A program made the translations under genes and the position numbers. Under the pieces are notes generated by a model that searched no databases, was not told where the DNA came from, and saw only the letters and a program-made list of their open reading frames with translations. DNA of 64,000 bases from Dethiobacter sp. (GTDB taxonomy: Bacteria; Bacillota; Dethiobacteria; DTU022; UBA8154): positions 12,485 to 76,484 of the forward strand of contig QZJM01000063.1 of assembly GCA_003605065.1 (NCBI GenBank), read 5' to 3'. Below are positions 42,054 through 61,823 of the stretch, piece by piece (position 1 is the first letter of the stretch; every line of letters begins with the position of its first letter).

Positions 42054-42872
42054 ATGAAAAAAAGAAAAATATCGTCTTCCTCCACGAAAAAATCCGACAA
42101 GAGCATACTCGGTAACAGGATAAGATCTTTCCGCGTTGAACGGGGGCTTACCCTGAATCAGCTTGCCGGTATGGCCGGGCTTTCGGCATCGTATTTAAGC
42201 ACGATTGAACGGGGCCTCAAAAAACCGTCAATTCCTGTGCTGAAACAGATTAGCGAGGCGCTCAATGTTTCTCCTTCTTTGCTTATTAGAACAGAGGAGG
42301 AAGCTTTTACGGGAAGTAAAATGCGTTTTCTTCGCGAGGGTAGAGGACTATCTGTAGAGGAACTTGCTGAAATCAGTGACATTCCGGCCCCAATGATTTC
42401 CAAATTTGAATCCGGTGAGGCTCAACCCGACTACGAACAACTGGAGCGCCTCGCTGAGGCTTTGAATTTAACGGCAACATGTTTTGTAGAAAAAAGCTAC
42501 TATAAGACGAGTATTGGTGACCGCCTGAAACAGCTCAGGGAAGCCCAGGGAATGACGCTTTCATTTCTGGCTGAAAAAGCTGGTGTTTCTCCTGGCCTGA
42601 TCAGCCAGATCGAAGGCGGTTATACCATCCCTTCCCTGGATACTCTGGAACGGATCTCTGTAGTACTGGGAACTTCACTTAATTATTTCTTACTTGAACA
42701 CGAGGAGGTAGAGAATCTTCTGACTTCCCTTGGGCCTGATTTACTCGAACTCCTCAGTGATCACAATGTCCAGGCTGTGCTGCGCTCCATTCGTGATTTT
42801 AATTCCGCAGAACTTCGTTATGTTCTTAATTATTTGCAATTTTTTAAAAGAAACCGCAAAATACTTTCTTAA
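42054..42872 (+). CDS. XRE-family transcriptional regulator with three tandem HTH_XRE domains
   Basis: Three repeats of the ~60-aa cro/C1-type HTH (IRSFRVERGLTLNQLA.., MRFLREGRGLSVEELA.., LKQLREAQGMTLSFLA..). Confidence 0.75.
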   Translation: MKKRKISSSSTKKSDKSILGNRIRSFRVERGLTLNQLAGMAGLSASYLSTIERGLKKPSIPVLKQISEALNVSPSLLIRTEEEAFTGSKMRFLREGRGLSVEELAEISDIPAPMISKFESGEAQPDYEQLERLAEALNLTATCFVEKSYYKTSIGDRLKQLREAQGMTLSFLAEKAGVSPGLISQIEGGYTIPSLDTLERISVVLGTSLNYFLLEHEEVENLLTSLGPDLLELLSDHNVQAVLRSIRDFNSAELRYVLNYLQFFKRNRKILS

Positions 42873-43277: not shown

Positions 43278-43958
43278 ATGTCTGAAGAAAAACAAAAAGA
43301 ACTATTTGAGAGGTTAAAGCAAGGGGTTATCAATTATGATGAGGAAGAAGTAGCCAGCGCAGCCAAAACGGTCTTAGAAGAAGGGATTGATGCTGTAAAG
43401 GCGGTCTTTGAAGGCCTGGTGCCGGGTATGGAGCATGTTGGAGAACTGTATGAACAGCAGGAATATTTTGTTCCTGAACTTTTAATGTGTGCCGATGCCA
43501 TGTATGCCGGTCTCGATATCTTAAGGCCCCATATGTCCAAAAAAGACCTTGGCATTACAGGAGTTGTTGTCATGGGTGTTGTCCAGGGGGATGTTCACGA
43601 TATCGGCAAAAATATCGTCAGGATGATGTTCGATGTAGCCGGTTTTGAAGTACATGACTTGGGACGCGATGTTCCCCTGGAGGTTTTCGTGGAAGAGCAG
43701 CTTCGTACCGATGCCGATCTGGTTTGTTTGTCAGCGATGATGACCACCACCATGGTAGGGATGAAAGATATTATTGCCCAGATTAAAGCCAAAAACCCTA
43801 ACGCCAGGATTATGATTGGCGGCGCTCCTGTAACAGAAGAAATCGCCGAGAAGTTTGGAGCTGATGGTTATGCTGAAGATGCCAGTAATGCTTTGAAAGA
43901 CGCTATTAAAATGTTGAGCACGCTTAAAAAAATTCAGGAAGAAGCAGAAACAGCTTAA
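43278..43958 (+). CDS. cobalamin-binding corrinoid protein (methyltransferase cognate corrinoid protein)
   Basis: DxHxxG motif (GDVHDIGKN) plus a B12-binding Rossmann domain. 226 aa. Confidence 0.9.
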   Translation: MSEEKQKELFERLKQGVINYDEEEVASAAKTVLEEGIDAVKAVFEGLVPGMEHVGELYEQQEYFVPELLMCADAMYAGLDILRPHMSKKDLGITGVVVMGVVQGDVHDIGKNIVRMMFDVAGFEVHDLGRDVPLEVFVEEQLRTDADLVCLSAMMTTTMVGMKDIIAQIKAKNPNARIMIGGAPVTEEIAEKFGADGYAEDASNALKDAIKMLSTLKKIQEEAETA

Positions 43959-43989
43959 AGCAGAAATTGTTTTTTAAGGAGGAAACACG

Positions 43990-45933: not shown

Positions 45934-45983
45934 TTGGATTTTTAGATTTCGGATTAAAAAGAAAACAAAGGTGGGTACGTAAG

Positions 45984-46928
45984 ATGTTTACCATAACAAA
46001 AGAACAAAAGGTTTGCCAGATTGGCCCTTGGACGATTGGCGGGCAGCCGGGCGATAATCCTCCGCTGTTGATTGCCTCCATGTTTCATAAAGGCGATCGC
46101 ATCCTGGAAAAGCGGAAGGAAGGAAAATTCGATCGCGTAAAGGCGGCTGACTACATCAAACGGCAGGAGGAGCTTTCTGAACAGACAGGGATCCCTGCTC
46201 TTACTGCCATGGTGGCCAATTCTGCCGATGAGATGAAGCGCTATATAGATTTTTACACCGGGTTGAGCAGTAAGCCCTTTGCCGTTGACATGTGGATGCA
46301 GGACCCTCGTGTTGAAGCTGTAAAATACGTCGCGGAGCTCGGCTTAACTGACCGGCTCCTTTATAACAGCATTACTCCCTGGGATAAGGATATTCCCGGA
46401 CAGGTGGCCATGCTTAAAGAGCTGGGTGTCAAGCATGTTGTTGTCCAGGTCTATGATGATAATGATCCTACTCCACAGGGAAGGGTTTCCAGTTTTCGCA
46501 GGATGATGGATATGATCGGTGAGGATAATTTTGAAACGATCCTGGTGGATACCTCCGTGATGAACCTGCCTGCTACTTCCTTTTCGTCTGTGGCAAACAG
46601 GTTAATTAAGGAAGAATTCGGGGTTCCGGTAGGCCTGGCTTCATCAAACGGCACTTTTATGTGGAAGGCGGCCCGCGAAATGTGGGGAGACGAAGGCTTT
46701 TCCTCCATGAACGTGGCGGGGCAGGCAGTGGCGACTATGTTCTGGTGTGATGCCATCTTTTACGGGCCGCAGGTTATAGCACCGCGTGTTTTCCCCGCGG
46801 TGGTAAGTGCAGCGTTAATGCTGGCCACATTTGTTTACCAGGAAACAAACAGTTTGCCATCCAATCCCAATCACCCCCTGTATAAATTTTTCGGAGACTT
46901 TGTGGAAAAGTTGAAGGCCGGTAAATAA
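45984..46928 (+). CDS. MtrH-family methyltransferase (methylcobamide:tetrahydrofolate/pterin methyltransferase, MT II type)
   Basis: 314 aa. Overall resemblance to tetrahydromethanopterin S-methyltransferase subunit H homologs used as MT II in bacterial O-demethylases. Confidence 0.7.
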   Translation: MFTITKEQKVCQIGPWTIGGQPGDNPPLLIASMFHKGDRILEKRKEGKFDRVKAADYIKRQEELSEQTGIPALTAMVANSADEMKRYIDFYTGLSSKPFAVDMWMQDPRVEAVKYVAELGLTDRLLYNSITPWDKDIPGQVAMLKELGVKHVVVQVYDDNDPTPQGRVSSFRRMMDMIGEDNFETILVDTSVMNLPATSFSSVANRLIKEEFGVPVGLASSNGTFMWKAAREMWGDEGFSSMNVAGQAVATMFWCDAIFYGPQVIAPRVFPAVVSAALMLATFVYQETNSLPSNPNHPLYKFFGDFVEKLKAGK

Positions 46929-47063
46929 AAAAAGGAAAGGTAAAAAATCAGTGGCTAAATTTGACAGACAACGGGTTCAGGAATTAACTAATGTATCTGG
47001 TTCCTAAAAGAATAGCAACGTAAATAGTGATAAATTAAAAAAATCAATAGGGTGGTGCGATAA

Positions 47064-48134
47064 ATGACTTTAACATCAAAAGAACGGGTATTAAACCAGC
47101 TACAGGGCAAGGAGATAGACCGGGTGCCCTGCTACAGCGGGATGGGCAATGTTACAGTAACGGGGTTGAAACAACTGGGCTACAGGTTCCCCCATGTGCA
47201 CAGCGACGCCGAAAAAATGGCCAAACTGGCGGCTACTTCATACAAGCTGTTTGGCTATGAGTGCGCTGTGGTTCCCTTTGATTTCTGCCTGGAGGCAGAA
47301 GCGCTGGGTTGTGTGATAAATCCTTACGAGGATGTAGAGCACCTTCTTTACCCTACCATCAAGGAGAAAGCTATACACAGCGAGGCGGAGATGGCCACTT
47401 TTCCCGTCCCGGAAGACTTAGAAAATGTTGGCCGGGTTCCTGTAGTAGTCGAGGCCATCCGGCGTTTGAAAGAGGATATCGGAGATAAAGTAGCTGTGGG
47501 CACATATTTCACTGCCCCCTTTACTTTGGCTGGTCAAATTTTTGATCTGGACCAGCTCTTTAAGCTATCCTTCAAAAAACAGGATCTTGTTGGCCAAATG
47601 CTCGACAGGCTCGCCGATGTCCTTATCGAACTGGGTAAAATTTATCGTGATGCCGGGGCCGATTATATTAACGTGCGTGAAATGGGGGCAACGACGGATA
47701 TCTTAAGTCCCCGCAGCTTTAAATCCTTGATTTTGCCTCCTCTCCAGAAAATTCATGCCGCGTTAAGTGCTTTAGGAATTCCCAATATCCTGCACATTTG
47801 TGGAGCGACTAATGCTATTGTTCCACTTATGATTGAAGCTGGTGCTGATGCTATTACCGTTGAGGTTAAAAACAATATGCTGAAAACAAGGGAAGATATT
47901 GGTTTTGAACCACTTGTTTTCGGCAATCTTGATGCTTATAAATTATTTGTCCATGACAGCGTGGAGGATGTGGAAAAAGCTGTTATAACTGCTCTGGAGC
48001 AGAGTGTCGACGCTATATGGCCCGGCTGCGATATCTGGCCTGAGGCCAAGCCGGAGAACTTTAAAGCTATGGTCGAGGCTACGGAAAAATATGGCGCGGA
48101 AAAATGGGTGCGCAAACAAAAGTCCGCATCGTAA
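47064..48134 (+). CDS. uroporphyrinogen decarboxylase (URO-D) family methyltransferase (MtaA/MtbA/OdmB-like MT I)
   Basis: 356 aa. URO-D fold signatures (ERVLNQLQGKEIDRVP..). Confidence 0.8.
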   Translation: MTLTSKERVLNQLQGKEIDRVPCYSGMGNVTVTGLKQLGYRFPHVHSDAEKMAKLAATSYKLFGYECAVVPFDFCLEAEALGCVINPYEDVEHLLYPTIKEKAIHSEAEMATFPVPEDLENVGRVPVVVEAIRRLKEDIGDKVAVGTYFTAPFTLAGQIFDLDQLFKLSFKKQDLVGQMLDRLADVLIELGKIYRDAGADYINVREMGATTDILSPRSFKSLILPPLQKIHAALSALGIPNILHICGATNAIVPLMIEAGADAITVEVKNNMLKTREDIGFEPLVFGNLDAYKLFVHDSVEDVEKAVITALEQSVDAIWPGCDIWPEAKPENFKAMVEATEKYGAEKWVRKQKSAS

Positions 48135-48163
48135 TGTCATAAATTATGGAGGAGGTAAATAAA

Positions 48164-49192
48164 ATGTCGGCAATGACTGCAAGGGAACGTTTTTTAAACA
48201 AGCTGGCAGGAAAGGAAACTGATCGTGTTCCTGTTTTTTGTGCTGATCAAACGGGAACTTATGAACAGATGGATAACTTACGGTCTTTTTGGCCGGAAGC
48301 CCATCAGAAGGCCAAAGAAATGGCCGGGCTGGCCCTGGGCGCCTTTACTGTTGCGGGCTTTGATGCTGTAAGAGTTCCGTTCTGCCAGACAATTGAGGCC
48401 GAGGCACTGGGAGCGGGCATAAAATATGCAGGAAAAGAGGGGATCCCCAGTGTTAACGTCCACCCCTACAAGCTGGGTGAGCCTGTCGGACCTCTTCCGG
48501 AGAATTTTTTAGAACGGGGCAGAATACCGGAATTAATTGAGGCGGTAAGGATCTTGAAACGTGAAGTGGGGGATCAGGCTGTTATTATTGGCGGCATCAT
48601 TGGGCCTTTCAGTATTGCCGCCAGCCTGATTGGTATTACCGATATTTTGAAGGCAGCTTTTAAGACCCCGGAAAAGGTTAAACCTTATCTGGACCTTGCC
48701 GGGGAAGCGGGAACAACTTTAGGAAAAGCCTTAATCGAAGCCGGAGCGGATTTGATCTGTGTTGAGGATATGATGGCCTCTATGGATATGATTAGCCCCA
48801 AAATTTACAGGGAACTGGTGGCTCCCTGGGAAACAAGGCAAAATGCCGCTTTATCCGTGCCCGTTATTCTTCACATTTGTGGAAAGACCGATATAATTAT
48901 TGACGATATGGCCAATACAGGAGCCAGTATACTCAGTGTCGAACCAAAAGTTGATGCACCTGCTGCTAAGGAAAAATTAAAAAAATACGACCGCTTTATT
49001 CCTCTAATCGGTGGTGTGGATGCCGTAACAACACTCTTTTCCGGCAGCGAGGAAGAAGTTGTACAGGAGACGATTAAAGCTATCAATCAGGGTTACGACA
49101 TGATTGCACCCGGTTGTTCCATCGCTCCTGGCTCCCCTGTCGTTAATTTACGGGCGATGATCAAAGGCGCTACCCTGGCAAAGGAACAGTAA
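48164..49192 (+). CDS. URO-D family methyltransferase, paralog
   Basis: ATG at 48164 after GGAGGAGG. ARERFLNKLAGKETDRVPVF parallels the upstream paralog. Confidence 0.8.
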   Translation: MSAMTARERFLNKLAGKETDRVPVFCADQTGTYEQMDNLRSFWPEAHQKAKEMAGLALGAFTVAGFDAVRVPFCQTIEAEALGAGIKYAGKEGIPSVNVHPYKLGEPVGPLPENFLERGRIPELIEAVRILKREVGDQAVIIGGIIGPFSIAASLIGITDILKAAFKTPEKVKPYLDLAGEAGTTLGKALIEAGADLICVEDMMASMDMISPKIYRELVAPWETRQNAALSVPVILHICGKTDIIIDDMANTGASILSVEPKVDAPAAKEKLKKYDRFIPLIGGVDAVTTLFSGSEEEVVQETIKAINQGYDMIAPGCSIAPGSPVVNLRAMIKGATLAKEQ

Positions 49193-50061: not shown

Positions 50062-50090
50062 TTGACAAAATTAACTTTACTTTATATAAT
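50062..50090 (+). promoter_or_regulatory. consensus sigma-A promoter TTGACA-17-TATAAT upstream of the cobalamin riboswitch
   Basis: TTGACA at 50062..50067, 17-nt spacer, TATAAT at 50085..50090. Confidence 0.55.
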
Positions 50091-50179
50091 TAAAGACAAC
50101 ATAAACTTTACTGTTACTAAATATTTTAACACTTAGAGTTGTTAATAAATATGTTAAATATACTTGGTAATGATTCGGG

Positions 50180-50336
50180 TGCTTCTCTTTCACCTGGAGA
50201 AGATAATAGGGAACCAGGTGTAATTCCTGGGCGGTCGCGCCACTGTGAAGGGAGAGCTTATTTCAGAAAGGTCACTGGATAAAATCCGGGAAGGCAGAAA
50301 TAAGCTATGACCCCAAAGTCAGGAAACCTGCCCGTT
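50180..50336 (+). promoter_or_regulatory. cobalamin (B12) riboswitch
   Basis: AATAGGGAACCAGGTGTAATTCCTGG, B12 box GCCACTG (50239..50245), CCGGGAAGGCAG, and AGTCAGGAAACCTGCC all match conserved blocks of the cobalamin riboswitch. Confidence 0.85.
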
Positions 50337-50423
50337 TCATAGTACATAAAAAAACCTTCTTCGCGTTAAGGGAGGGGTAATTAACATATTAAAACTCGCG
50401 CGGATAAGGTGGTATTATTTAAA

Positions 50424-50561
50424 ATGGAGAATATGGTTAATAAAAAGACCAATTCTACTGCTATTGTTAACAATCTTTTGGGCAAAGAATGGTCTTTTGT
50501 TGTTCATAAGACCGGTGCAACACAATATTTTCTCATTACGCAGTTAATGCCTGTTTATTAA
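50424..50561 (+). CDS. small hypothetical ORF (45 aa) between the riboswitch and pylSn
   Basis: ATG after TAAGGTGGT. It is followed by an imperfect 10-bp hairpin plus T-run (50562..50600). Its coding status is uncertain. Confidence 0.2.
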   Translation: MENMVNKKTNSTAIVNNLLGKEWSFVVHKTGATQYFLITQLMPVY

Positions 50562-50667
50562 AGCGGCTATATCCTAATAGGAGTTATATGGCCGCTCTAA
50601 TTTTTGAACAGATCAAAAGCGATTTTCAGGTGTAGACAGTAAATAGCTTGCCGGGGGTTAAAATAGT

Positions 50668-51006
50668 ATGCCTCTTAAAAATGTTATAGAAGCCAAAAAG
50701 CAGAAAGGGGAAAAAATTGATAATAAAGTAAGATATATCCAGAAACATAAACCCATATTTTCAGTGCTTGAAAAAATTAAGCTTTGGCCTTCAAGTTCAG
50801 GTATCTTACATGGTATTAAACATTTAACCAGGGATGGCAATTATATAGTAATTGAAACACATTGTCATGAGCAGATAAAGGTAAGGATATCAAAAAACAG
50901 CCGAGCTGCAAGGTGGCTGAGGAACAAGTGGGCTGAAAGGGTATGTACTGTTTGTCGTATTCCGTCCTGGAAAGTTAATAAGTATCTAAATACATCGTTT
51001 AAATAA
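50668..51006 (+). CDS. pylSn: pyrrolysyl-tRNA synthetase N-terminal tRNA-binding domain protein
   Basis: 112 aa. Matches the bacterial PylSn free-standing domain. Directly precedes pylSc. Confidence 0.85.
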   Translation: MPLKNVIEAKKQKGEKIDNKVRYIQKHKPIFSVLEKIKLWPSSSGILHGIKHLTRDGNYIVIETHCHEQIKVRISKNSRAARWLRNKWAERVCTVCRIPSWKVNKYLNTSFK

Positions 51007-51018
51007 GTGGAGGCATTA

Positions 51019-51834
51019 ATGAAGTTTACTCATGTGCAAATACAACGTCTTATTGAACTTGGTTTAAATACCGGCCTTGAGTATGAATTTGCCAATAGTA
51101 TTGAAAGGGAAGCAAATTTTAAGCAACTGGAAAAAGAACTAGTCAAACAAAACAAAGCTGCATTAAAAAGATTGCATGAAGAGAAACGTCCTTTGCTTAA
51201 AACTGTAGAACAAAAACTTATTGGTGTTTTAACTGAAAATGGATTTATTGAAGTAATCACACCTATTTTAATGTCCAGGGGCTTGCTGGAAAAGATGGGA
51301 TTAACTCCTGAATTATTTCGACAGGTGTTTTGGGTTGATGAGGGGAAAAAAAGGTGCTTGCGCCCAATGCTGGCTCCTCATTTATACTACTTGTTAAGAA
51401 AAATGAAAAAAATATGGCCTGCTCCCCTGAAAATATTTGAAGTTGGACCGTGTTTTCGCAAGGAGTCAAAGGGAGGGTACCATATGGAAGAATTTACCAT
51501 GTTGAATCTGGTGTGCTTTAGCTGTACTGAACCCCTTGCTGAGTTGCTGGATCTGGCTGATAAACTGCTTGACCCTTTTAATATACCATTTAACATTACT
51601 GATGAGTATAGTGAAGTTTACGGCCGGACGATTGATATAGTAGTAAATGATGTAGAAATTGCTTCTGCCGCGGTTGGCCCGCATGAGCTTGACAAAAACT
51701 GGGATATTACCGGCAGCTGGTATGGAATCGGTTTGGGATTGGAACGTTTGGCTATGGTTCTCCAGGGGTATCAAAATATAAGGCGCGTGAGCAGGAGTTT
51801 AAGTTACCAAGATGGGGCCCGCCTTAATATTTAG
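51019..51834 (+). CDS. pylSc: pyrrolysyl-tRNA synthetase catalytic domain (class II aaRS core)
   Basis: Class II motifs (FRKESKG..; GIGLGLERL). ATG at 51019 after GTGGAGG. Stop is TAG. Confidence 0.9.
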   Translation: MKFTHVQIQRLIELGLNTGLEYEFANSIEREANFKQLEKELVKQNKAALKRLHEEKRPLLKTVEQKLIGVLTENGFIEVITPILMSRGLLEKMGLTPELFRQVFWVDEGKKRCLRPMLAPHLYYLLRKMKKIWPAPLKIFEVGPCFRKESKGGYHMEEFTMLNLVCFSCTEPLAELLDLADKLLDPFNIPFNITDEYSEVYGRTIDIVVNDVEIASAAVGPHELDKNWDITGSWYGIGLGLERLAMVLQGYQNIRRVSRSLSYQDGARLNI

Positions 51835-51867
51835 AGTTGCACTTAAAACGGGGGTATATTTTTAAAA

Positions 51868-52980
51868 ATGCCGGACGAAAAATTTCCTGTTGAGAATTTC
51901 ACAAGAAAGGCTTTAATGAAGCAGCCGTTAACTGCCTCGGAAATTGCGGCCCTGGTTTACCTGCGTGATGAAGGGCAAATTGCCAGGCTTAAAAAGGGTG
52001 CCTGCCAGATCAGAACACAATTTTTTGGCAATCATGTTTTCCTTTACGGGTTTGTTTATTTTAGCACATATTGTCGAAACCTTTGCTCATTTTGTAATTA
52101 TGCGGCGAAGAATAAGATGAACAGGTATCGCAAATCAGTTCAGGAGATACTGGCAGTATGCAGAAGCCTGCAGTTCTCAGGAGTTCATCTTATTGATCTG
52201 ACCATGGGAGAGGACCCTCATTATTTAACACATGAAGGTGATGCTCTCCTGGAACTGGTTAAATTTGTTCGCTCCCAGGTAGATTTGCCGCTAATGTTGT
52301 CACCGGGAGTTATCGGAGAACATTTGCTTGAAAGCCTGGCTGAACTTGGAGTGGCCTGGTATGCCTGTTATCAGGAAACCTATAATCCTAATTTATTTCA
52401 ACAGCTAAGGGTGGGGCAAAGTTTTACCAGGCGTTTGGGGGCGAAACAGAAAGCCAGAGAAGCTAACCTGCTGGTAGAGGATGGGATGCTGTTGCATCTC
52501 GGAGAGAGTGAACAGGATATTATTTCTTCCATTCTCGCTATGCAAAGACTCGGAGTTCACCAGGCCAGGGTTATGGCTTATGTTCCTCCGGAACCTAACG
52601 GTCTACCTAAAAGGCGCTCTCACAACCTGGAAGAAGAAACGGTTATCGCCATTTTGCGCCATGTTTTTCCGGACAGATTGATTCCCGCGTCACTGGATAT
52701 AGAAGGTTTAAAAGGTCTCTCTTCCCGCTTGAAGGCCGGAGCCAATGTCGTTTCTTCCATTATTCCCCCCATGACCGGGCTAAGGGGAGTATCTCAAACT
52801 ACCCTTGATATTGATGAGGGGAGAAGGACTGTGGAAAACGTCAAAGAGGTGTTGAAATCGCTGAATTTGGAAGTTGCACCTTTAAGTATGTATTTTGCCC
52901 TGGTGCAGCGTTTTAGAGAGGAACAAAGAATGGGAACTATGGGGAATATAGGGGAAGAAAGGGTAGGCTTGCTTCTATGA
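51868..52980 (+). CDS. pylB: methylornithine synthase (radical SAM lysine mutase)
   Basis: FSTYCRNLCSFCNY radical-SAM cluster motif. Close overall match to archaeal PylB. Confidence 0.9.
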   Translation: MPDEKFPVENFTRKALMKQPLTASEIAALVYLRDEGQIARLKKGACQIRTQFFGNHVFLYGFVYFSTYCRNLCSFCNYAAKNKMNRYRKSVQEILAVCRSLQFSGVHLIDLTMGEDPHYLTHEGDALLELVKFVRSQVDLPLMLSPGVIGEHLLESLAELGVAWYACYQETYNPNLFQQLRVGQSFTRRLGAKQKAREANLLVEDGMLLHLGESEQDIISSILAMQRLGVHQARVMAYVPPEPNGLPKRRSHNLEEETVIAILRHVFPDRLIPASLDIEGLKGLSSRLKAGANVVSSIIPPMTGLRGVSQTTLDIDEGRRTVENVKEVLKSLNLEVAPLSMYFALVQRFREEQRMGTMGNIGEERVGLLL

Positions 52981-53861
52981 CAAGGTTAAAGCAGGAAAAT
53001 TTACTCTCTCTCGATCTTAGGAAATATGATTGTGAACTGGAGGAAAAAGCCGGGAAGACTTTGGCTCAGCTTGTTCAGGAAGGGGCGGGCTTAACTCAAC
53101 CCCTGGAAATGTTTACAAAGGAAAAAGCAGCAGTTATACCGATTACTGCAGGCCTGGGAATAATTACAGGTTTTACTGCGGCAGTGGAATCAATACTTAA
53201 GCATGTGGGTCTTAATGTTAAACTGACGGAAAACACAGATATGGCAGGAATAAGTGAAGCTCTGGACTGGGGTGCAAATCTTCTCTTTTGTGCTGATGAC
53301 AACATCTTTTTCGTGCTGGATATGCTTAGTGGTAGCTATGTTGATAATGCCCTGGCTACAGCGGATATGTTTATGTTTGCGATCAACAAGCTGGCTGATG
53401 GTCTCCAGGGGAAGAGCACTTTGATTGTAGGCCTGGGTAAAGTTGGTAATGCCTGCTTGCTATCTGCTTTGCAGAAAGGTGCAAAAGTGTACGTTTATGA
53501 TAAATTGCCGGAGCATTGTGTAACCGCTGCCCGTAAGTATCCAGGTGTATCCCCGGTAAAGGAATCATTAATGAATGCCTGCCGGAAAGCGCAGGTAATT
53601 ATTGATGCTTCCCCGGAAGGAAGTTTTATCAGGGATGAGTGGTTGTCAGATGATGTGGTAATCGGGGCACCCGGTGTGCCGCTCGGTTTGGAGGAAAAAG
53701 CATATAAACGGCTGTTTAAAAGAGTTATTCATGATTGTCTTCCCCTGGGGGTTGCCGGTATGGTTGCCAAAGTTTTCTCCCAGCGGAAAGGACTTAACAA
53801 GTCTGTAAGAAAGAAGGTGGGATATGAGCAAGTGGTAACAGCACTCGGCAGGCTTGACTAA
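52977..53861 (+). CDS. pylD: pyrrolysine synthase (NAD-dependent dehydrogenase)
   Basis: LIVGLGKVGNACLLSALQKGAKVYVYD Rossmann motif paralleling the archaeal PylD region. 4-nt overlap with pylB. Confidence 0.85.
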   Translation: MTRLKQENLLSLDLRKYDCELEEKAGKTLAQLVQEGAGLTQPLEMFTKEKAAVIPITAGLGIITGFTAAVESILKHVGLNVKLTENTDMAGISEALDWGANLLFCADDNIFFVLDMLSGSYVDNALATADMFMFAINKLADGLQGKSTLIVGLGKVGNACLLSALQKGAKVYVYDKLPEHCVTAARKYPGVSPVKESLMNACRKAQVIIDASPEGSFIRDEWLSDDVVIGAPGVPLGLEEKAYKRLFKRVIHDCLPLGVAGMVAKVFSQRKGLNKSVRKKVGYEQVVTALGRLD

Positions 53862-53963
53862 AGGTGGATAAAGTGTGGAATCTCTTACAAGAGCGTGGGG
53901 GATTCAGGCATCGGGAAAGATGGTCAAGTATATTAAAACCGCTTAACAAAGGAGTGAGCAAAA

Positions 53964-55133
53964 ATGAGTAAACGGCATCTTCTGTTTCTGGTCTCCGGAG
54001 TTGTTGCCTTGCTGGTTTTAAGCACTACCGCTTTCGCCCAGGAAGTTACCCCTCTTGCTGAACAGCTTTTCCGCTATCACCGCGGGCAGGACATCTTTTT
54101 TATGTTCATGCTGGTGGCATTTCTGATGTTGTTCATCAAACGCTATGAGTGGGGCGTTTGTTTGATGACAATGCTGATCATATCGGTTGCCTTTCCTTTC
54201 TATTTTGCAGTGCAGACAATTTATTTTGGCAATGCCTGGAATATGGATCTGATTATCCTGGGAGTAGTCTGTGCCATTACCCTGGTAATCTCTGCAGGTA
54301 TGTTTCTCGGCCAGGTTAAAACATGGCAGTATATAATTATTGGATTATTATTTGTTATCGCTTATTCCATTAATGAATGGTTTCTTTTTACCTACCTGGA
54401 AGGAGTTGCTGATATGGGCGGCAGCCTTCTGGTCCATGCTTTTGCAGCCTACTTTGGCTACGGGATGATCTTGTCGTTACGGCATAAAAAGATCATGGAT
54501 GCTCCCATGAAAGTAACGGTCCACAGCGTTTCTTTTGTCTGGCTGGCATCCATGTTGCTATGGATGCTCTGGCCATCATTTACAACTGCGCTGCTTGCAC
54601 CGGACCAGGTAATCGGCGGTATGCTTGCCACTTACATGGCCTTAATGGCTTCCACTGTGATAACTTACCTGGTGCTTCTGGCAATCCATAAAAAAATCGA
54701 TCCTTTAGTTTATACCTATGCCATCCTGGCTGGTGGGGTAGCTATTGGCTCTACGGTTGATCTTGTCGGGCCGTGGGCTGCTTTTGCTATAGGACTGCTG
54801 GCCGGCATTGTTTCCTCCCTGTGCTTTGTTTACCTGCATCCTACCCTTGAAAAAGTACTGGGTGTTCGTGATGTAATGGGTGTACACAACCTGCATGGTG
54901 TTCCAGGAATTCTTGGTGCTCTTTTTGCTATTCCTTTTGCCGGAGCCATACAGGTTACAGCTGCAGTAGGGACATTTGTAATAGCAATAGTTACCGGACT
55001 GGTTGCCGGGTTGATTATGAGAGCTTTCGGAAGAAACGAGGAATACATCCTAGACGATGCTGAAAGCTTCTCCATGGAAGACGCCAGGGGCACTGAAAGC
55101 GTTTCCATAGGAGAATCAGGTATTTCTGTATAA
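53964..55133 (+). CDS. Amt/MEP/Rh-family ammonium (methylammonium) transporter with N-terminal signal peptide
   Basis: Signal peptide ..TTAFAQEV. 11 predicted TM segments. Amt signature region VDLVGPW..GVHNLHGVPGILGALF. Confidence 0.8.
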   Translation: MSKRHLLFLVSGVVALLVLSTTAFAQEVTPLAEQLFRYHRGQDIFFMFMLVAFLMLFIKRYEWGVCLMTMLIISVAFPFYFAVQTIYFGNAWNMDLIILGVVCAITLVISAGMFLGQVKTWQYIIIGLLFVIAYSINEWFLFTYLEGVADMGGSLLVHAFAAYFGYGMILSLRHKKIMDAPMKVTVHSVSFVWLASMLLWMLWPSFTTALLAPDQVIGGMLATYMALMASTVITYLVLLAIHKKIDPLVYTYAILAGGVAIGSTVDLVGPWAAFAIGLLAGIVSSLCFVYLHPTLEKVLGVRDVMGVHNLHGVPGILGALFAIPFAGAIQVTAAVGTFVIAIVTGLVAGLIMRAFGRNEEYILDDAESFSMEDARGTESVSIGESGISV

Positions 55134-55208
55134 TTAAACCCTGTTTTAAATTGGCTGCTCTCATAGAGCGCATACAGCGGGTTTTTTGCTAAAAACCCCG
55201 TAATTCAT

Positions 55209-55280
55209 GGAGGGTTGATCGGCAGGATCACGTAGACTCTAAATCTGCGCAGCCGGGTTTGACTCCCGGACTCTCCTCCA
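55209..55280 (+). tRNA. pylT: tRNA-Pyl (anticodon CUA), encodes CCA
   Basis: GGAGGGT..ACTCTCC 7-bp acceptor stem. 6-bp anticodon stem CGTAGA/TCTGCG with loop CTCTAAA. A single nucleotide separates the acceptor and D stems. Short variable loop. T-arm CCGGG-TTTGACT-CCCGG. These are all hallmark pylT features. Confidence 0.85.
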
Positions 55281-55368
55281 GTTACCCAACAGATTTAGTA
55301 TCCTTGCAAGGAGGTGAATCTTTTGACCGGCATTTAAAAGTTCAATCTTCCGGGAAGGAGGTGATTCT

Positions 55369-56014
55369 GATGAGTAAAGAAATTCTGGCCAAATTACAAC
55401 GTGCTGTCGAAGAACAGGATGTGGAAGCCGCTGAGGCTGCGGCCCGTGAAGCAGTTGCCGCAGGGATCGATCCCTTTGTGGCTATCAACGAGGGCCTATC
55501 TCCCGCTATGCAGACCATTAGTGATCTGTTTGATGACGGAGAACTGTATGTGCCCCAGATTTTGTTTGCGGCAGAGGCTTTTATGAATGCCATGGCTATC
55601 CTGACAGAAAAGCTTTCGGCAGAAGAAGTAAGCAAAACTAAGCGCGGCAAAGTTATCGTGCATACAGTCCAGGGAGATATCCATGACATCGGAAAAAATA
55701 TTGTCGGCACAATGTTAACAGCCAACGGCTTTGAAGTAATTGACCTGGGCCGCGATGTTCCGATTGATGTGGTTGTGGAGAAAGCAAAAGAGCTCGGAGT
55801 AGACATGGTTACCGGTTCGGCGCTTATGACCACCACTATGCCATCCCAAAGGGATATTGTTAAGGCACTCGACGAAGAAGGTATCAGGGGAAAAGTCAAA
55901 TGCATGTTTGGTGGTGCCCCGGTTACTAAGGAGTGGGTCGACCAAATCGGTGCCGATGGTTATGCAAGTAACGCCTCTGAAGCGGTAATTGTAGCGAAGG
56001 AACTTATGGGTTAA
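55369..56014 (+). CDS. mtmC: monomethylamine corrinoid protein
   Basis: GDIHDIGKNIV DxHxxG motif. Strong similarity to archaeal MtmC across the full length. RBS GGAAGGAGG. The ORF-track start at 55259 overlaps pylT and is rejected. Confidence 0.9.
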
Positions 56015-56042
56015 AAAAATCTTTAAGAAAGGAGTGAGAAGA

Positions 56043-57422
56043 ATGTCTAATGTTCCCAAGGTTGGGGTATTTGAAGCCTATGCCAGGGCAACTACAGGAC
56101 CACGCGTCCCTGAAAAAGACTGGGACTACAAAATCATTCCCCAGGCCGCCAGCCGCCTGAAGGAAAAATACGGCATCAAAATGGATAAAAGGAAGATGAT
56201 TCCCACAGATGAAAATCTAATAAACAATCTCTTCAGGGCAGGCATGGAAATGCTGGTGGAATGTGGAGTTTACTGTATGGATACTGGGCGGGTTATCAAG
56301 TACACCGAAGAAGAAGTCTGGACGGCCGTTAAAAATGCCCCCAGGTGTTTAACGCTCGGTGAAGGCCGTGATTCAAGAGAACTCAAAGGGCGCAGGTATG
56401 ACGACAGCAGGCCGCCTATCATCCAGGGGGGACCTACCGGAGCACCGGTAGCAGAGCAGGACTTTGTAGCCATGCACGAAGCCTATGCCCGTGAGCCGAT
56501 CGTCGATACCATTGTTGACGGTGTTATGCAGACGATCAATGGCTACGATCCGAGGCCTAACACCCCCTTCGAAATTGCGGCGGTCAAGAACGAAGCGATG
56601 ATGATTAGACTGGCACAGGTCCGTGCCGGTCGCCCGGGGATGGGATTGTAGGGCAACGAAACTTCACTCAGTGCCGCAGGGGTTATCGCTGCTGATTTTC
56701 CCGGCGGCATGAGGGCATCAGATAGCCATGAAGTTTCCCAGCTGAACGAGCTGAAGATAGATGTAGGTGCACTATCTTTTGTTGCTCACTATGTTTTGGC
56801 TGGAGATATCATCATGTGTGAACAGATGCCCATCTTGGGAGGCTATGCAGGTGGTCTGGAGGAAACGACCATTGTTGACGTTGCCACCACGCTGAATGCC
56901 TTCCTAATGACACAGGCGCACTGGCATCTTGATGGCCCGATCCATGTGCGGTGGGGGATTACCACGGCCAGAGAAGTGCTGGCGGTAGCCGGCCACTGTG
57001 CACGGGCAATCGAGGAAAATACACATTTACTTCTTGGTAACCAGTATTATACATTGGCCGGTCCCTGCACGGTAATGTGCCTGTTGGAAACGGCAGCCCA
57101 GTCTATCACCGATACAGCCAGCGGCCGGGAACTTGTTTCCGGGGTAGCCTCGGCCAAAGGAGTGGCCACAAACTATACTACTGCCATGGAAGCCCGCTTC
57201 ATGGGTGAAGTGGCCCATGCTGTAGCCGGGATGGATTTAGAAAAGGTTAACGGGATTCTTGATGAGCTGGTAGGTATGTACGAGACCCAGTACAAGACAG
57301 CTCCCAAAGGAAAAACTTTCAATGAGTGCTATGATCTTGTCAGGTTGACTCCTTCTGACGAGTACATGCAGGTTTATAAAGAGGCGTGGGGGATTTTAAA
57401 TAAACTCGGCCTCAAGTACTAA
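56043..57422 (+). CDS. mtmB: monomethylamine methyltransferase with in-frame UAG (56649..56651, codon 203) decoded as pyrrolysine
   Basis: Two same-frame ORFs (56034..56651 and 56709..57422) are separated only by TAG. Flanking sequence ..GMGL-UAG-GNETSLSAAG.. and ..DSHEVSQLNELKID.. matches archaeal MtmB around its Pyl codon. pylT and pylSBCD are in the same locus. Confidence 0.9.
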
Positions 57423-57523
57423 GGGCCAGGGGTAAGATGCAGCAGCCTGTACCCCGGTCCGCTTTCTTGGGCCGGGGTACAGGGTATTTTGTTTACGTAA
57501 TTAAAAAAAAGAGGAGAAGAACT

Positions 57524-58087
57524 TTGTTTAATTACTGGCGAAATAAAAAAAAGAAAAGGCTTTTGCTCTCTCTTTTGGAGAAAAAGGCCGCAGAGGCAAA
57601 TCTTGCTGTTATAGTTGTCAGCCCCAAAGAAATTACCGTTCACGAAGGTGTCAGGCTTAAGTGCCTGGTTCCCCAGTGTGAATACTACGGTGTTTGCCGG
57701 CTTTGCCCTCCCAATCTTCCCCCTGTTTCAGAAATACGGGCTGCTTTGTCTTATTTCCAGCAGGCATACCTGGTTGTTCTGAGATATCCTCCGGTTGCCA
57801 GGGAGGAGGTGTGGAAGCCAGAAAAAATCCTGCTGGATACTGTAAACGAACTGGAAAAAGTGGCCTGGTCGAAAGGTTTTTACCGCGCTGCCGGGCTGGT
57901 TGTGGGAGGATGCAAGCTGTGTGAACGCTGCGCGCCTCTGCATGAGCCGTGCCGGCATCCTTACCGGGCCAGGCCCAGTCCTGCAGGTCTGGGCATTGAT
58001 ATTACTATGCTGGCAAAAAGGAAGGGAATACCGCTAAGCTGGCCTCCCGGCGATGAGCTAATTTTTTTGGGTCTGCTCCTGGTATAA
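57524..58087 (+). CDS. DUF2284-family putative metal-binding protein
   Basis: Cys-rich with CPP motif (CRLCPPN), ~187 aa from TTG at 57524 after GAGGAG. Confidence 0.55.
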   Translation: MFNYWRNKKKKRLLLSLLEKKAAEANLAVIVVSPKEITVHEGVRLKCLVPQCEYYGVCRLCPPNLPPVSEIRAALSYFQQAYLVVLRYPPVAREEVWKPEKILLDTVNELEKVAWSKGFYRAAGLVVGGCKLCERCAPLHEPCRHPYRARPSPAGLGIDITMLAKRKGIPLSWPPGDELIFLGLLLV

Positions 58088-58183
58088 AACATTTGGGAAC
58101 AGGGATGGAAAACATTCATTCTACTACGTAACAAGCATACATTATCTATTGATGCGACTGATAGGGTCGTGTGGTTAGTGTAA

Positions 58184-58720
58184 ATACAGGAATTAAACGT
58201 TCCCCGTTATGGAAAAGTTGTGGCTGGTAGCAAATTCACTGTTGTTGCCGCACAAAATCCTTATGACGATGTTGGCACAGTACGCATTAGCCGTGCTTTT
58301 ATGGATCGAATTTGTCGCATTACTTTAGATTATCAAACCGAGGCCGAAGAAATAGAAATTGTTAAAAATAGAACCGGTTTATCTGATGATAATTTGGTCT
58401 TGTGGGCTGTAAAGCTAACGCGGCAGTCACGAAGTCACGATGATATTAAAATGGGAGCTTCAGTGCGTGCTGCCATTGACATAGTTGCCTTGAGCGAAAG
58501 TATGAAAAAAAGAGGGGCTTTCACCAGGGATAATGTTAAAGAAGCTGTTTTTATGGCTCTAAGCAGTAAAATATGGCTGACTGAAATGACCCCCAAAACC
58601 CCGGAACATGTGATACGTGAAATTATCAATGTTGTTGAACAAACAGAGGGGATTAGTTATTTTCCTGCTGCAGGACAAGAAGAACAAAAACCGCAGAAAA
58701 AAAAAGCGATGAACAATTAA
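58184..58720 (+). pseudogene. MoxR-like AAA+ ATPase fragment (C-terminal two thirds only, Walker A region missing)
   Basis: VVAAQNP..AFMDRI sensor/arginine-finger region of MoxR. The open frame begins at a stop at 58181 with no N-terminal ATPase half. Confidence 0.55.
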
Positions 58721-58737
58721 AACAGACGGGAAAAAAC

Positions 58738-58959
58738 TTGCCGCTAATCAGGCTAGATCAAGATCATGCAAGTGATCTTTCTTTGCCCTATCGTCTGGCG
58801 ATGTACTACAGTAATAATCCGGAAGAACTAGAGAATTTTTTTGAACAGGATGAGGCCATTACTATTTTCGGCACTTTTTTTGATATGCTTAAGTCGGAGG
58901 CAAAAAAGATAGCTAAGGGTATACATATTTATCTTTTATCTGCTGTATCAAATTTTTAA
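58738..58959 (+). CDS. small hypothetical ORF (73 aa)
   Basis: ORF only, with no recognisable motifs. Confidence 0.2.
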   Translation: MPLIRLDQDHASDLSLPYRLAMYYSNNPEELENFFEQDEAITIFGTFFDMLKSEAKKIAKGIHIYLLSAVSNF

Positions 58960-58976
58960 TGAGAGGATGTACTTAA

Positions 58977-60173
58977 TTGAACGTGGGTGTTCTGGGAGGT
59001 GGATTACAGGGTCTGGAGGCGGCTTATCTTCTTAAAAAAGCCGGTCACAGGGTTTTGATGCTTGAAAAGAGGCCACATGCTCCTGCTCTGGGGTTGGCTG
59101 ACGAAAAGTTTTGTTTTAACCTTACAGCTACCTGTCAACAGGAACTGCTAGATTTTTTAAAGAAAGTTGATGTAATTATTCCCGCTACGGAAAATAAAAC
59201 CACCCTTGTGGTTATGAATGAGGCGGCGAAAAGATATGCCAAAGTTTTCTGCTTTGATTCCCAGGCATATGAGCTAAGCAGCAGTAAAAGCCTGTCCAAT
59301 AAGCTTTTTTCTCAGCTGGCACTGCCCAGGCCTATTCCCTGGCCGGATTCCTCTTTCCCCTTAATAGTAAAACCGTCTGAGGAAAGCGGAAGCCGCGGTG
59401 TAAAAATTGTTTTTAACCAAAATGAACTGGATAAGGTCCTAACCGAAGAAAAACTGTATAAAGGCGGTTTTATCATTGAGGAATTTCTGGAAGGTCCTTC
59501 ATATTCCATAGAGGTGGTTACAATAAACGGTGAAGGTTTCGCTTTTGAAACAACTTTGCTTGGTTTTGACGAGCTTTTTGACTGTAACAGGGTTATTGCC
59601 CCCAACGGGTTAGATGAAAAGAGTAATAAAGAAATGCAGGAAATGGCACTGCGTATCGCGCAGTCCTTAAAGCTTACAGGTATCATGGATCTGGAAACTA
59701 TTTTACATGAAGGAAAGTTTAAAGTGCTGGAAATTGATGCCCGTTTGCCGAGTCAAACACCTACTGTTGTCTACAAGGCAACAGGCCTGAATCTGGTTTC
59801 TTATTTATTGTCGTCATTTCTTCACAAAGATTTACCGGGGGTAGAAGCAGGTGCAAAAAGAGCTGTAATTTATGAACATCTTTATTTTTGTGACGGCATG
59901 GTCTTTTTCCCCGGAGAACATATCATCACCTCCTGTAAAGAAAATCTTTTTTATATGGAGGATTTTTTTGGTGCAGACGAAGCCATTACGAACTGTGTGG
60001 AAAAAAAGGAGCAAAAATCCTGGGTTGCTACTGTTATCATAACGGGCCACAACCTGGAACAGGCCCGTACCAAAAGAGAATATATGCTGAAAAGGATTTT
60101 AGAAAAATACCGGGCTGAATTATTTCCTTCTAAAAATATCGAGAAAACTGCAGTAAAGGGAAGAAAAAGTTAG
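58977..60173 (+). CDS. pylC: pyrrolysine biosynthesis ATP-grasp ligase (3-methylornithine--L-lysine ligase)
   Basis: ATP-grasp. ..LEIDARLPSQTPTVVYKATGLNLV.. closely parallels archaeal PylC. TAG stop. Confidence 0.9.
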   Translation: MNVGVLGGGLQGLEAAYLLKKAGHRVLMLEKRPHAPALGLADEKFCFNLTATCQQELLDFLKKVDVIIPATENKTTLVVMNEAAKRYAKVFCFDSQAYELSSSKSLSNKLFSQLALPRPIPWPDSSFPLIVKPSEESGSRGVKIVFNQNELDKVLTEEKLYKGGFIIEEFLEGPSYSIEVVTINGEGFAFETTLLGFDELFDCNRVIAPNGLDEKSNKEMQEMALRIAQSLKLTGIMDLETILHEGKFKVLEIDARLPSQTPTVVYKATGLNLVSYLLSSFLHKDLPGVEAGAKRAVIYEHLYFCDGMVFFPGEHIITSCKENLFYMEDFFGADEAITNCVEKKEQKSWVATVIITGHNLEQARTKREYMLKRILEKYRAELFPSKNIEKTAVKGRKS

Positions 60174-60185
60174 GGAGGCTTGGAG

Positions 60186-61823
60186 ATGAACAAAATTGGT
60201 ATTGCCCTGGATTTGGGGACCAGCGGTTTTCGAGGACAGGCCATCGACTTGTCTGCGAATGCGGTTTTAAAAACAGTAATAACTGCCCGTCATCCCCTGC
60301 CTGGCGCAAACGTGATGGATCATCTCAACTTTGCCATTATGGCTGGGCCGGATGTAGCTCACCAGATCATCATGGCTACAATAAACCAGATTATAGATCT
60401 GCTAAATATGCCCGGTTTCGCCATTGAGTGTTTTGCCGTTTGCGGCAACCCGATTCAACTTTCCCTCTTTGAAAATATTGAAATCAGGGATTTGGCCTAT
60501 GCGGGTGAAAATTACCGCCGCCAGCTGGGGATTGTCTCTCCTGATCGCAGCAGCAAGGAATACCCGGCTGAGCGGTTTCCACTGTTAAACTTACCGGGGA
60601 ATTGCCTGGTTTTTATTCCCCCTGCTGTAAAACATGAAATAGGGGCAGATGCTCTGGCCATGTTGATTCTTTCCGGAATTCTGGATAAGGAAGAAATTTG
60701 CCTGGCTACCGATTACGGGACAAATGCTGAAATGGCTCTGAAAGTGGGAGATAAAATCATTACCGGTTCTGCCGCTGCCGGCCCTGCTCTGGAAGGACAG
60801 CATGTTGAGAACGGGATGCTGGCTGCACCTGGGGCCATTTCTGACCTCCGACCGGAAAACGGCGGCTACCGTTGTCTTGTTCTCAATACTGAGATGCAGC
60901 CTGAGGACGGAGATTTACTTACTCTTGACAATGGAACTGTACTTCAAAAGGGCCGGTTAGAGGCCAAAGGAATAACCGGAACGGGTGTAATAGCAACAGT
61001 TTCACAGGGTATGGACAGCGGCCTGGTAAGCCTTCCCAATATTAAAACTGCTAGCGGCTCACTGCATCTTTCCAACGGGATTCGTTTTAGTAAGAAGGAC
61101 TTAATCGAAGCCGGGAAGGCTATCGGCGCAATCCGGGCCGGTTACCTCACACTGGCCGCTGAGGCAGGAGTCTCTGTAGAAGATATCCGTGTTGCTTTTA
61201 TGGCCGGTGCATCGGGAACTTATGTGGATGCACGTAAAGCGATGAACATCGGCATGGTTCCTCCTAAGGTAAAGGAAATATATCAGGTTGGTAATACTTC
61301 CTTGTTGTTGGCAAGAGAAATTGTGCAGGATCCCCGGAGATTAAAAACTCTTGATGAAATTGCCCGACAGTTACGGGCAAGACATTGTATGTTTGGTCTT
61401 TCCAAGGTTTTTGAAAAGGCTTATTTGCTGGAGCTTTCATACTGGACGGAAGGCCTCCCATGGGAACTTTATAAAAAATACGCCAGAATGTACCAGCTTC
61501 CGGAGTTGCCGCAGCTTCACACCGATGTAAATGTTACTAAAAAGGTCACCCGTGATATAAGGGATATTGGGAAAGATGGCTTGATCACCATAGAGAGAGT
61601 CGGTGAAGAAAGACACTGGTTTGTACCCGGGTGTGTCAACTGTGGCCAGTGTGTAGAAGAATGCCCTGAAAATGCTATAAAGCTCGATGATACTCTGGGC
61701 GTTGTGATGCGCATGGACTGCTGCAGTGGAACTGCCTGCCAGCGCTGTGAGCATATTTGTCCGGAAAAAGTTTTTCGTCTTTCAGAATTTTGGATGAACT
61801 CTTTAAAAATTAGCTGTGATTAG
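60186..61823 (+). CDS. ramA: RamA-like corrinoid reductive activase (ASKHA ATPase plus C-terminal 2x[4Fe-4S] ferredoxin domain)
   Basis: ATG at 60186 after GGGAGG. C-terminal CVNCGQCVEECP and C..C..CQRCEHICP clusters. Confidence 0.8.
   Translation: MNKIGIALDLGTSGFRGQAIDLSANAVLKTVITARHPLPGANVMDHLNFAIMAGPDVAHQIIMATINQIIDLLNMPGFAIECFAVCGNPIQLSLFENIEIRDLAYAGENYRRQLGIVSPDRSSKEYPAERFPLLNLPGNCLVFIPPAVKHEIGADALAMLILSGILDKEEICLATDYGTNAEMALKVGDKIITGSAAAGPALEGQHVENGMLAAPGAISDLRPENGGYRCLVLNTEMQPEDGDLLTLDNGTVLQKGRLEAKGITGTGVIATVSQGMDSGLVSLPNIKTASGSLHLSNGIRFSKKDLIEAGKAIGAIRAGYLTLAAEAGVSVEDIRVAFMAGASGTYVDARKAMNIGMVPPKVKEIYQVGNTSLLLAREIVQDPRRLKTLDEIARQLRARHCMFGLSKVFEKAYLLELSYWTEGLPWELYKKYARMYQLPELPQLHTDVNVTKKVTRDIRDIGKDGLITIERVGEERHWFVPGCVNCGQCVEECPENAIKLDDTLGVVMRMDCCSGTACQRCEHICPEKVFRLSEFWMNSLKISCD

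Follow-up and report, generated by a model that had tools for sequence, protein, structure and literature searches.

What is the short element at positions 55209–55280 of the DNA that we analyzed, and why does it lie next to methyltransferase genes? The DNA is a 64-kb stretch from a Dethiobacter sp. (positions 12,485 to 76,484 of contig QZJM01000063.1, assembly GCA_003605065.1). We call this stretch the window, and the coordinates below refer to it unless another locus is named. A preliminary description, made from the letters alone, proposed that the element is pylT, which encodes the tRNA for pyrrolysine (Pyl), the 22nd amino acid, specified by the stop codon UAG, and that it is located with mtmC and its client methyltransferase rather than with pylS. 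We assign a probability of about 80% to the following reading: 55209–55280 is the gene for a tRNA-Pyl of the U73 class that functions as an amber suppressor, it lies at the junction of pyl and methyltransferase genes, it is probably part of a polycistronic transcript, and its contact with mtmC is the result of a deletion.

Identity, fold and conservation of the tRNA

ARAGORN finds just one tRNA in the entire 64-kb window. It is called as tRNA-Pyl, with CTA as the anticodon, on the + strand, and the coordinates are identical to those that had been proposed for a 72-nt tRNA with a CUA anticodon:

55209–55280, + strand: pylT, tRNA-Pyl with anticodon CUA, a U73 discriminator, and an encoded CCA

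All 22 pairs of the cloverleaf are intact. The acceptor stem has 7 bp (GGAGGGU and ACUCUCC), and a single nucleotide (U8) separates it from the D stem, which has 4 bp (GAUC and GAUC) and a 5-nt loop (GGCAG). After an A comes an anticodon stem of 6 bp (CGUAGA and UCUGCG), whose 7-nt loop (CUCUAAA) holds C31 U32 A33. The variable loop has just 3 nt (CAG), and the T arm (CCGGG and CCCGG) is followed by the 3' strand of the acceptor stem, U, and CCA. So the four oddities of PylT that the preliminary description had listed (the 6-bp anticodon stem, the 1-nt linker, the tiny D loop, and the 3-nt variable loop) are all present. The T loop (UUUGACU) is also atypical: it has UUU instead of UUC and U at the position of C56, and the canonical T-psi-C is absent.

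To compare this tRNA with its relatives, we made a gap-free alignment of 37 distinct homologues of 72 nt, taken from other genomes. None of the homologues in this alignment has the canonical UUC at the first three positions of the T loop. The proposed structure pairs 99.9% of the cells of the alignment, and in 13 of the 22 pairs, both partners have changed. These covariation values were not reached by any of 500 shuffles, and if the structure is slid by 1–3 columns, then it pairs only 30–61% of the cells. Every helix has compensatory changes at two or more pairs. In the anticodon stem, all six pairs vary among the homologues, and five of the six have both-side changes. RNAfold, given pylT alone, recovers three of the arms (D, anticodon, and T) but shifts the pairing of the acceptor helix to the CCA end; it is the comparison of homologues, not RNAfold, that settles the register of the acceptor stem. 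A covariance model built from the alignment has a single site in the window, which is pylT (94.8 bits, with the window's sequence in the training set). Both the alignment and the ARAGORN search had been suggested as checks on the tRNA, and both came out in its favor.

The tRNA is also under strong purifying selection, as it is identical at 72 of 72 positions to the copy in a related locus (L003), while its neighbors have diverged. In the same comparison, the spacer between pylT and the upstream transporter gene amt is 62% identical, third codon positions of amt are 61.5% identical, and the neighboring coding sequences are 82–86% identical.

Could the cloverleaf be due to chance, or a false positive from ARAGORN? 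The curated tRNA models of Rfam are silent here: at the gathering thresholds, which we used to scan for non-coding RNAs, there is no tRNA call at pylT, and a permissive scan of 55100–55400 gave only a sub-threshold hit to tRNA-Sec (20.9 bits). This is an expected weakness of the library for the atypical tRNA-Pyl and is not evidence against pylT. The covariation across the 37 homologues and the complete conservation relative to L003 refute a chance origin. The score of 94.8 bits with the family model also speaks against it, as does the position of pylT inside pyl clusters, which is conserved in dozens of genomes. We consider a chance cloverleaf to be practically out of the question. Because the Rfam models miss pylT, a standard annotation pipeline could overlook this gene.

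The covariance model also recovered three pylT genes that ARAGORN had missed, in L041 (13158–13222), L051 (10702–10773), and L052 (14684–14755). In L041, which is from a metagenome-assembled genome (MAG) of the Dehalococcoidales, the match is just upstream of a gene for a corrinoid protein. This is an independent case of pylT before a corrinoid gene.

The acceptor end of the window's pylT (ACUCUCC, then U, then CCA) has U73, at 55277, together with A3:U70. To see how common this is, we collected relatives with a PylSc profile search (one genome per species), identified pylT with ARAGORN, and identified the neighboring genes with tblastn. This gave a layout survey of 82 loci; for the PylSc clade of the window, we added metagenomic and assembly contigs, and the sample is biased towards relatives of the window's PylSc. 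Among the 59 surveyed pylT loci that end in CCA, 21 have U73 and 38 have G73 (three of the 59 are the window and copies from the same species). U73 nearly always occurs together with A3:U70, and at all 21 of these loci pylSn is directly before pylSc.

According to Herring et al. in 2007, G73 is reportedly an identity element of the tRNA-Pyl of D. hafniense. The window's pylT lacks G73 and fits a variant class that is still within the tRNA-Pyl family. This counts against our reading to the extent that charging by the window's PylSc is assumed. The residues of PylSc that track U73 versus G73 are E78, G94, K151 (K versus Q), and S157 (S versus N), and the last two are in the motif-2 loop. They may reflect co-evolution with the tRNA or merely shared ancestry, which are inseparable in these data. 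The variant class has been named pylTU, and it was described as unusual, from three bacterial species, and as a class without biochemical data (PMC9630628, J Biol Chem 2022). Our tRNA has the same U73, and the class seems to be more widespread than reported, in a sample that favors relatives of this PylSc. The locus adds a well-supported example of this little-studied class, along with its cognate split pyrrolysyl-tRNA synthetase (PylRS). The class is also of practical interest, as it might provide an orthogonal pair for genetic-code expansion.

The pyl cluster and the contact with mtmC

The tRNA lies within a cluster of genes that are all on the + strand, in the order pylSn-Sc-B-D-amt-pylT-mtmC-mtmB(TAG)-...-pylC. 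We assigned the protein families by comparison to the equivalog cut-offs of NCBIfam and to Pfam:

50668–51006, + strand: pylSn, the tRNA-binding small subunit of PylRS (TIGR03912, 107.7 bits; cut-off 51)
51019–51834, + strand: pylSc, the catalytic subunit of PylRS (TIGR02367, 278 bits; cut-off 178)
51868–52980, + strand: pylB, methylornithine synthase (TIGR03910, 404.5 bits; cut-off 348)
52977–53861, + strand: pylD (TIGR03911, 202 bits; cut-off 150; also Pfam PylD_N)
53964–55133, + strand: Amt-family transporter, probably for (methyl)ammonium (PF00909, 123.8 bits; below the NCBIfam cut-off for amt)
55370–56014, + strand: gene for a corrinoid protein, mtmC by context (TIGR02370, 252.9 bits; cut-off 215; also Pfam B12-binding and B12-binding_2)
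56043–57422, + strand: mtmB (PF05369, 733 bits), with an in-frame TAG at 56649–56651
57524, + strand: DUF2284 (family search)
58220 and 58738, + strand: two short open reading frames (ORFs), orf166 and orf73 (family search)
58977–60173, + strand: pylC, displaced to the 3' side of the methyltransferase block (TIGR03909, 384 bits; cut-off 248)
60180, + strand: a second RACo-like gene (family search)

All five Pyl proteins (PylSn, PylSc, PylB, PylC, and PylD) score above the equivalog cut-offs, and their genes lie within 50668–60173. The genes pylSn, pylSc, pylB, and pylD are 1.3–4.5 kb upstream of pylT, and pylC is 3.7 kb downstream. Both synthetase genes are on the same strand as pylT (3.4–4.5 kb upstream), so the idea that pylT is with its client rather than with pylS does not hold. 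PylSc is 100% identical to P0001, the large subunit of the pyrrolysine-tRNA ligase of a Dethiobacter sp. MAG, and the same locus is present in GCA_020059905.1. We also considered a start for pylSc at GTG 51007, but an exact look-up of that protein matched nothing, and the public gene begins at ATG 51019.

On the cluster map, mtmB is ~0.8 kb 3' of pylT. It has one in-frame TAG, at codon 203 (56649). MtmB is similar to MtmB1 from M. barkeri (structures 1TV2 and 1L2Q; E about 1e-172), and the TAG aligns with residue 202, which is the pyrrolysine. Also, Rfam's PYLIS_1 matches 56649–56748 within mtmB (91 bits). From its gene content, then, the Pyl-decoding system is complete, and it has a client gene 0.8 kb downstream of the tRNA. 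Given what is known about these families, the split synthetase would charge the tRNA with pyrrolysine, which PylB, PylC, and PylD from the same cluster would supply, and the charged tRNA would decode the UAG at codon 203 of mtmB.

The mtmC gene starts at ATG 55370, after GGAAGGAGGTGA, and the same gene is called in the public records. The spacer between pylT and mtmC is therefore 89 nt (55281–55369) and not 88 nt, as first described. The mechanical ORF for mtmC, which was thought to extend across the tRNA, covers 55259–56014 from a TTG start, and overlaps only the last 22 nt of pylT. In the public records, the gene callers break mtmB at its TAG. With the tRNA missed at Rfam's thresholds, the mechanical ORF running into its 3' end, and mtmB split, recognizing pylT puts right the annotation of what is a complete Pyl system, in a Dethiobacter-like MAG from the subsurface.

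Across the 82 bacterial loci, pylT is found at many different positions. One order is pylT-Sn-Sc-B-C-D (the Thermincola type, often directly after mtmCB), and others are pylT-Sc-B-C-D-Sn, Sc-corrinoid-B-C-D-pylT-Sn, B-C-Sn-Sc-D-pylT, and Sc-D-pylT-B-C-Sn. The order Sn-Sc-B-D...pylT...methyltransferases...C is confined to the PylSc clade of the window (57–100% identity). This clade includes ten lineages that carry pylT, and in all of them, pylT is 3' of pylD or of pylD-amt and 5' of methyltransferase genes. The gene that follows pylT is not fixed: in the nine related lineages it is mtbC (next to an mtbB that is either intact or has an internal deletion), a remnant of mtbB, or amt.

L006/L083, L089/L090, and L091: intact mtbC-mtbB (Dimeth_Pyl 734 bits; PYLIS_2 98–101 bits)
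L003, at 6609–7744: mtbC fused to residues 319–353 of mtbB, and a C-terminal fragment of mtbB
L005/L085 (L005 at 3911–4195), L086, and L087/L088: only a 3' remnant of mtbB
L084: amt
The window: mtmC

For instance, L006 has an intact mtbC-mtbB at 14160–16218, with 734 bits for Pfam's Dimeth_Pyl and 97.9 bits for PYLIS_2. L087 has a second, intact copy of mtbCB further downstream.

What remains of mtbC in the window is a short stub:

55308–55337, + strand: mtbC stub, with a ribosome-binding site (AAGGAGGTGA) and then TTG ACC GGC ATT TAA, which is four codons

The 5' part of the spacer between pylT and mtmC is homologous to the leader between pylT and mtbC in L003, including AAGGAGGTGA and TTG ACC GG; the reading frame ends after four codons, and at about 55339, homology to the leader of L003's mtmC picks up again. 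We propose that an ancestral string of pylT-mtbC-mtbB-mtmC-mtmB lost mtbCB and that the four-codon stub was left behind. As judged from these alignments, the contact of pylT with mtmC is the scar of a ~2 kb deletion of mtbCB, and the related loci are stages in the loss of mtbCB around a fixed pylT. Because the gene after pylT differs between lineages, and because of the stub in the window, the adjacency is a lineage-specific accident and not a conserved design. So pylT is indeed beside its client, directly 5' of the corrinoid gene that precedes mtmB, as the preliminary description had emphasized, but its contact with mtmC is not conserved in relatives.

There are other signs of change in this region. 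Where the window has orf166 and orf73, after DUF2284, L089/L090 have genes for a 312-amino-acid MoxR-like AAA ATPase and a 237-amino-acid VWA protein. Of these two short ORFs, which lie at 58220–58959, orf166 has weak similarity to AAA-lid/GvpN, and both look like truncated remnants.

This raises the question of whether pylT is an unused relic within a decaying cluster that has lost mtbCB and has apparently truncated AAA and VWA genes downstream. The deletion stub at 55308–55337, the two short ORFs in the place of the relatives' AAA and VWA genes, and an integrase pseudogene at 29681 would all fit with decay. But pylT is 100% identical to its counterpart in L003 despite ~38% divergence at neighboring silent sites, and its 22 base pairs are all intact. 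Moreover, the five genes for Pyl proteins all have their full length and score above the equivalog cut-offs, and mtmB is also complete, its only TAG being at the catalytic position. We think it very unlikely that pylT is a relic.

Transcription of pylT

If pylT is functional, how is it expressed? Four features of the window bear on this question:

50062–50090, + strand: sigma-70-type promoter, TTGACA-17-TATAAT (12 of 12 matches), the only strong + strand candidate upstream of the pyl genes
50160–50349, + strand: full-length cobalamin riboswitch aptamer in the pyl leader (RF00174, 122.7 bits; gathering threshold 31.5; E = 2.6e-30)
50562–50606, + strand: hairpin with a U-rich tail, a candidate conditional terminator, ~60 nt before pylSn (folding energy −24.3 kcal/mol, z = −5.4)
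57446–57493, + strand: strong hairpin with a U-rich tail, close behind mtmB, that resembles an intrinsic terminator (16 bp, of which 11 are G-C; folding energy −34 kcal/mol, z = −5.4)

A scan of the + strand between 55134 and 57445 found no promoter-like (sigma-70) or terminator-like site. The relatives are more informative. In L006, L083, L089, L090, and L091, which represent three lineages, the stop codon of amt is 8 nt before pylT and the start of mtbC is 34–44 nt after the CCA; in L086, pylD ends 20 nt upstream of pylT. Gaps of 8, 20, or 34–44 nt are too short for a promoter, so the transcript that holds the tRNA must, in those genomes, also hold the methyltransferase genes. In the simplest case, the upstream genes would be on it as well. 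By analogy, we think that pylT is rather probably made within a polycistronic precursor and then excised, and co-transcription with mtmC-mtmB in the window, as had been suggested at first, is plausible.

This transcript may run from the consensus promoter at 50062, through the leader with the cobalamin riboswitch and through pylT, into mtmC-mtmB, and end at the hairpin at 57446–57493. The tRNA would be released by RNase P and by trimming at the 3' end, which would split the long transcript in two. The tRNA would thereby be supplied in step with the mRNA that depends on it. Bacterial RNase P prefers U at position −1, and the base at position −1 of pylT is U. We liken the proposed excision to the thrU-tyrU-glyT-thrT-tufB operon of E. 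coli, whose tRNA genes are co-transcribed with an mRNA. In both cases, a tRNA would be cut from a transcript that runs into protein genes of the same functional system, with the mechanism in the window being a proposal.

Several observations weigh against a single long transcript. The 75-nt spacer between amt and pylT contains a hairpin (GGGUUUUU/AAAAACCC) that overlaps a run of U; it could be a weak terminator, and there is room in the spacer for a non-consensus promoter. The hairpin and U-run at 50562–50606 lie between the promoter at 50062 and pylSn and may limit how often transcription reaches pylT. Also, pylC is on the far side of the strong terminator, and its expression must take some other route.

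These points lead to a competing explanation, in which pylT is monocistronic and has its own non-consensus promoter in the 75-nt spacer, while mtmCB is expressed by read-through or from another promoter, and the adjacency is without significance for regulation. The AT-rich spacer has a hairpin that could end the upstream transcript. In many other bacteria, including those with Thermincola-type clusters, the cluster begins with pylT, which must have its own promoter there and could have one here. Furthermore, pylT genes of the U73 type are repeatedly preceded, in different contexts, by (A/T)CAT immediately before the tRNA and by a TTAAT-like motif 6–12 nt upstream. On the other hand, there is no + strand match to a sigma-70 promoter near pylT or between pylT and mtmC, and the TTAAT-like motif is too near to the mature 5' end to be a standard −10 element with a leader. 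No convincing pair of −10 and −35 elements could be obtained from these motifs, and we rejected them as a pylT promoter. The five related loci from three lineages, with their gaps of 8 nt and 34–44 nt, also argue against independence, as in these loci at least the genes 3' of pylT must be on one transcript with it. Overall, we consider an independent pylT unit to be possible but unlikely, and we prefer the polycistronic precursor.

If the precursor does start at 50062, then cobalamin might control it. The riboswitch ends 319 nt before pylSn. A riboswitch before pylSn is also found in L003, L004, and L086, and L003 repeats the arrangement of promoter and riboswitch: the same 12 of 12 promoter precedes its riboswitch by 60 nt. 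The aptamer of L004 and that of L086 each lie in the middle of an operon, directly between the last URO-D gene and pylSn, and lack a promoter of their own, so they can act only on downstream genes. A hairpin with a U-run follows the aptamer by ~210 nt in the window and by ~200–330 nt across the window, L003, and L004, shortly before pylSn. We could not derive a clear ligand-dependent alternative pairing between the aptamer and this hairpin.

We speculate that cobalamin gates the use of UAG as pyrrolysine. Transcription from 50062–50090 would pass the riboswitch and the conditional terminator before reaching pylSn-Sc-B-D, the transporter gene, pylT, and mtmCB, so that the synthetase, part of the Pyl pathway, the suppressor tRNA, and the B12-dependent client would appear together only at the right corrinoid cofactor status; excision of the tRNA in mid-operon would then split the message. 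We view this scenario as doubtful, with perhaps one chance in a handful of being correct. If it is true, then a riboswitch controls an expansion of the genetic code. Because TAG is still used as a stop codon in the window, control over the timing of the suppressor would be useful: 8 of the 51 long ORFs end with TAG, including pylSc and pylC, so TAG is not avoided. If the riboswitch link holds, it would show how a bacterium that uses TAG as a stop limits the time for UAG read-through. Control over the production of the suppressor has been reported for Acetohalobium arabaticum (PMC11467909). We found no publication that names both "cobalamin riboswitch" and "pyrrolysine" in the literature that we searched.

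The stop codon of pylSc is TAG, with a TAA three codons later. At 60171–60186, pylC ends with TAG, and the RACo-like gene follows in the same frame after two codons, so that read-through would fuse PylC to RACo. We treated this as a coincidence; in L004, pylC ends with TAA. The leader also contains a 17-nt motif (ACTTTACTGTTACTAAA) between the −10 element and the aptamer, which the window shares with L003. A small ORF in the riboswitch leader (50409–50561) is conserved only within the species, and we dropped it as a gene.

The wider locus and known pyl systems

Upstream of the pyl genes, family searches identified these genes:

43278, + strand: a second corrinoid protein
43990, + strand: RACo/RamA-like activase
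45984, + strand: MtrH-like protein
47064 and 48146, + strand: two URO-D (MtbA-like) methyltransferases
49272, + strand: Fer4 protein

The region 41506–42872 encodes a corrinoid adenosyltransferase and a candidate regulatory protein that contains three HTH_3 domains. Together with 43278–49192, it forms the rest of a module for corrinoid methyl transfer that lies 5' of the pyl genes. The same module precedes pylSn in L006, L086, L087/L088, L089, and L091.

Further away, a 489-codon ORF with TAG read-through (29681–31150) was considered as a Pyl-containing protein and rejected: it joins a truncated tyrosine recombinase, out-of-context sequence, and a fragment similar to ornithine cyclodeaminase. 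The recombinase ORF hits the TAG just before its GKG motif. These are pseudogenes and might mark an old boundary of a mobile element. There is also a T-box leader at 4472–4747 (100.7 bits) upstream of an ORF at 4730–5821, which fits with a Firmicutes-type host.

How does this locus compare to known pyl systems? The bacterial pylT genes of the Thermincola and Desulfitobacterium types share this compact cloverleaf, including its CUA anticodon, its anticodon stem of 6 bp, its variable loop of 3 nt, its 1-nt linker, and its 5-nt D loop. The window's pylT matches that of a Thermincola ferriacetica MAG at 66 of 72 positions and that of Paradesulfitobacterium ferrireducens at 63 of 72 positions. In contrast to the U73 and A3:U70 of the window, the tRNAs of the Desulfitobacterium type have G73 and G3:C70. 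The synthetase is split into PylSn and PylSc in those clusters as well. However, pylT is first in those clusters and pylBCD are contiguous, whereas in the window, pylT is in mid-cluster after pylD-amt, and pylC is 3.7 kb downstream, with methyltransferase genes inserted between pylT and pylC.

In Methanosarcina, pylTSBCD adjoins the mtmCB1 operon (PMC2933860, PMC11467909). The window likewise has a full set of pyl genes beside genes for monomethylamine methyltransferase, with pylT in the same orientation as the coding sequences and with the UAG of MtmB at 202. Unlike in the window, pylS is a single gene in Methanosarcina, pylT heads the pyl genes and not the methyltransferase genes, and the mtm operon is transcribed separately, outside the pyl operon (PMC2933860).

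We found no description of the order Sn-Sc-B-D-amt-T-mtmCB-...-C with a cobalamin riboswitch ahead of it in the literature that we searched. Methylamine genes can be interspersed with pyl genes, though (PMC2933860). Acetohalobium arabaticum has a homolog of a methyltransferase within its pyl cluster, and Desulfotomaculum acetoxidans has a homolog of RamA between pylT and pylS (PMC2933860, PMC3941956). The window shows the same interspersing of methylamine-pathway genes with pyl genes as these interrupted clusters do. Overall, both pylT and its neighborhood are of kinds that are already known. The discriminator variant of this tRNA has been described before, and the gene order is specific to its clade.

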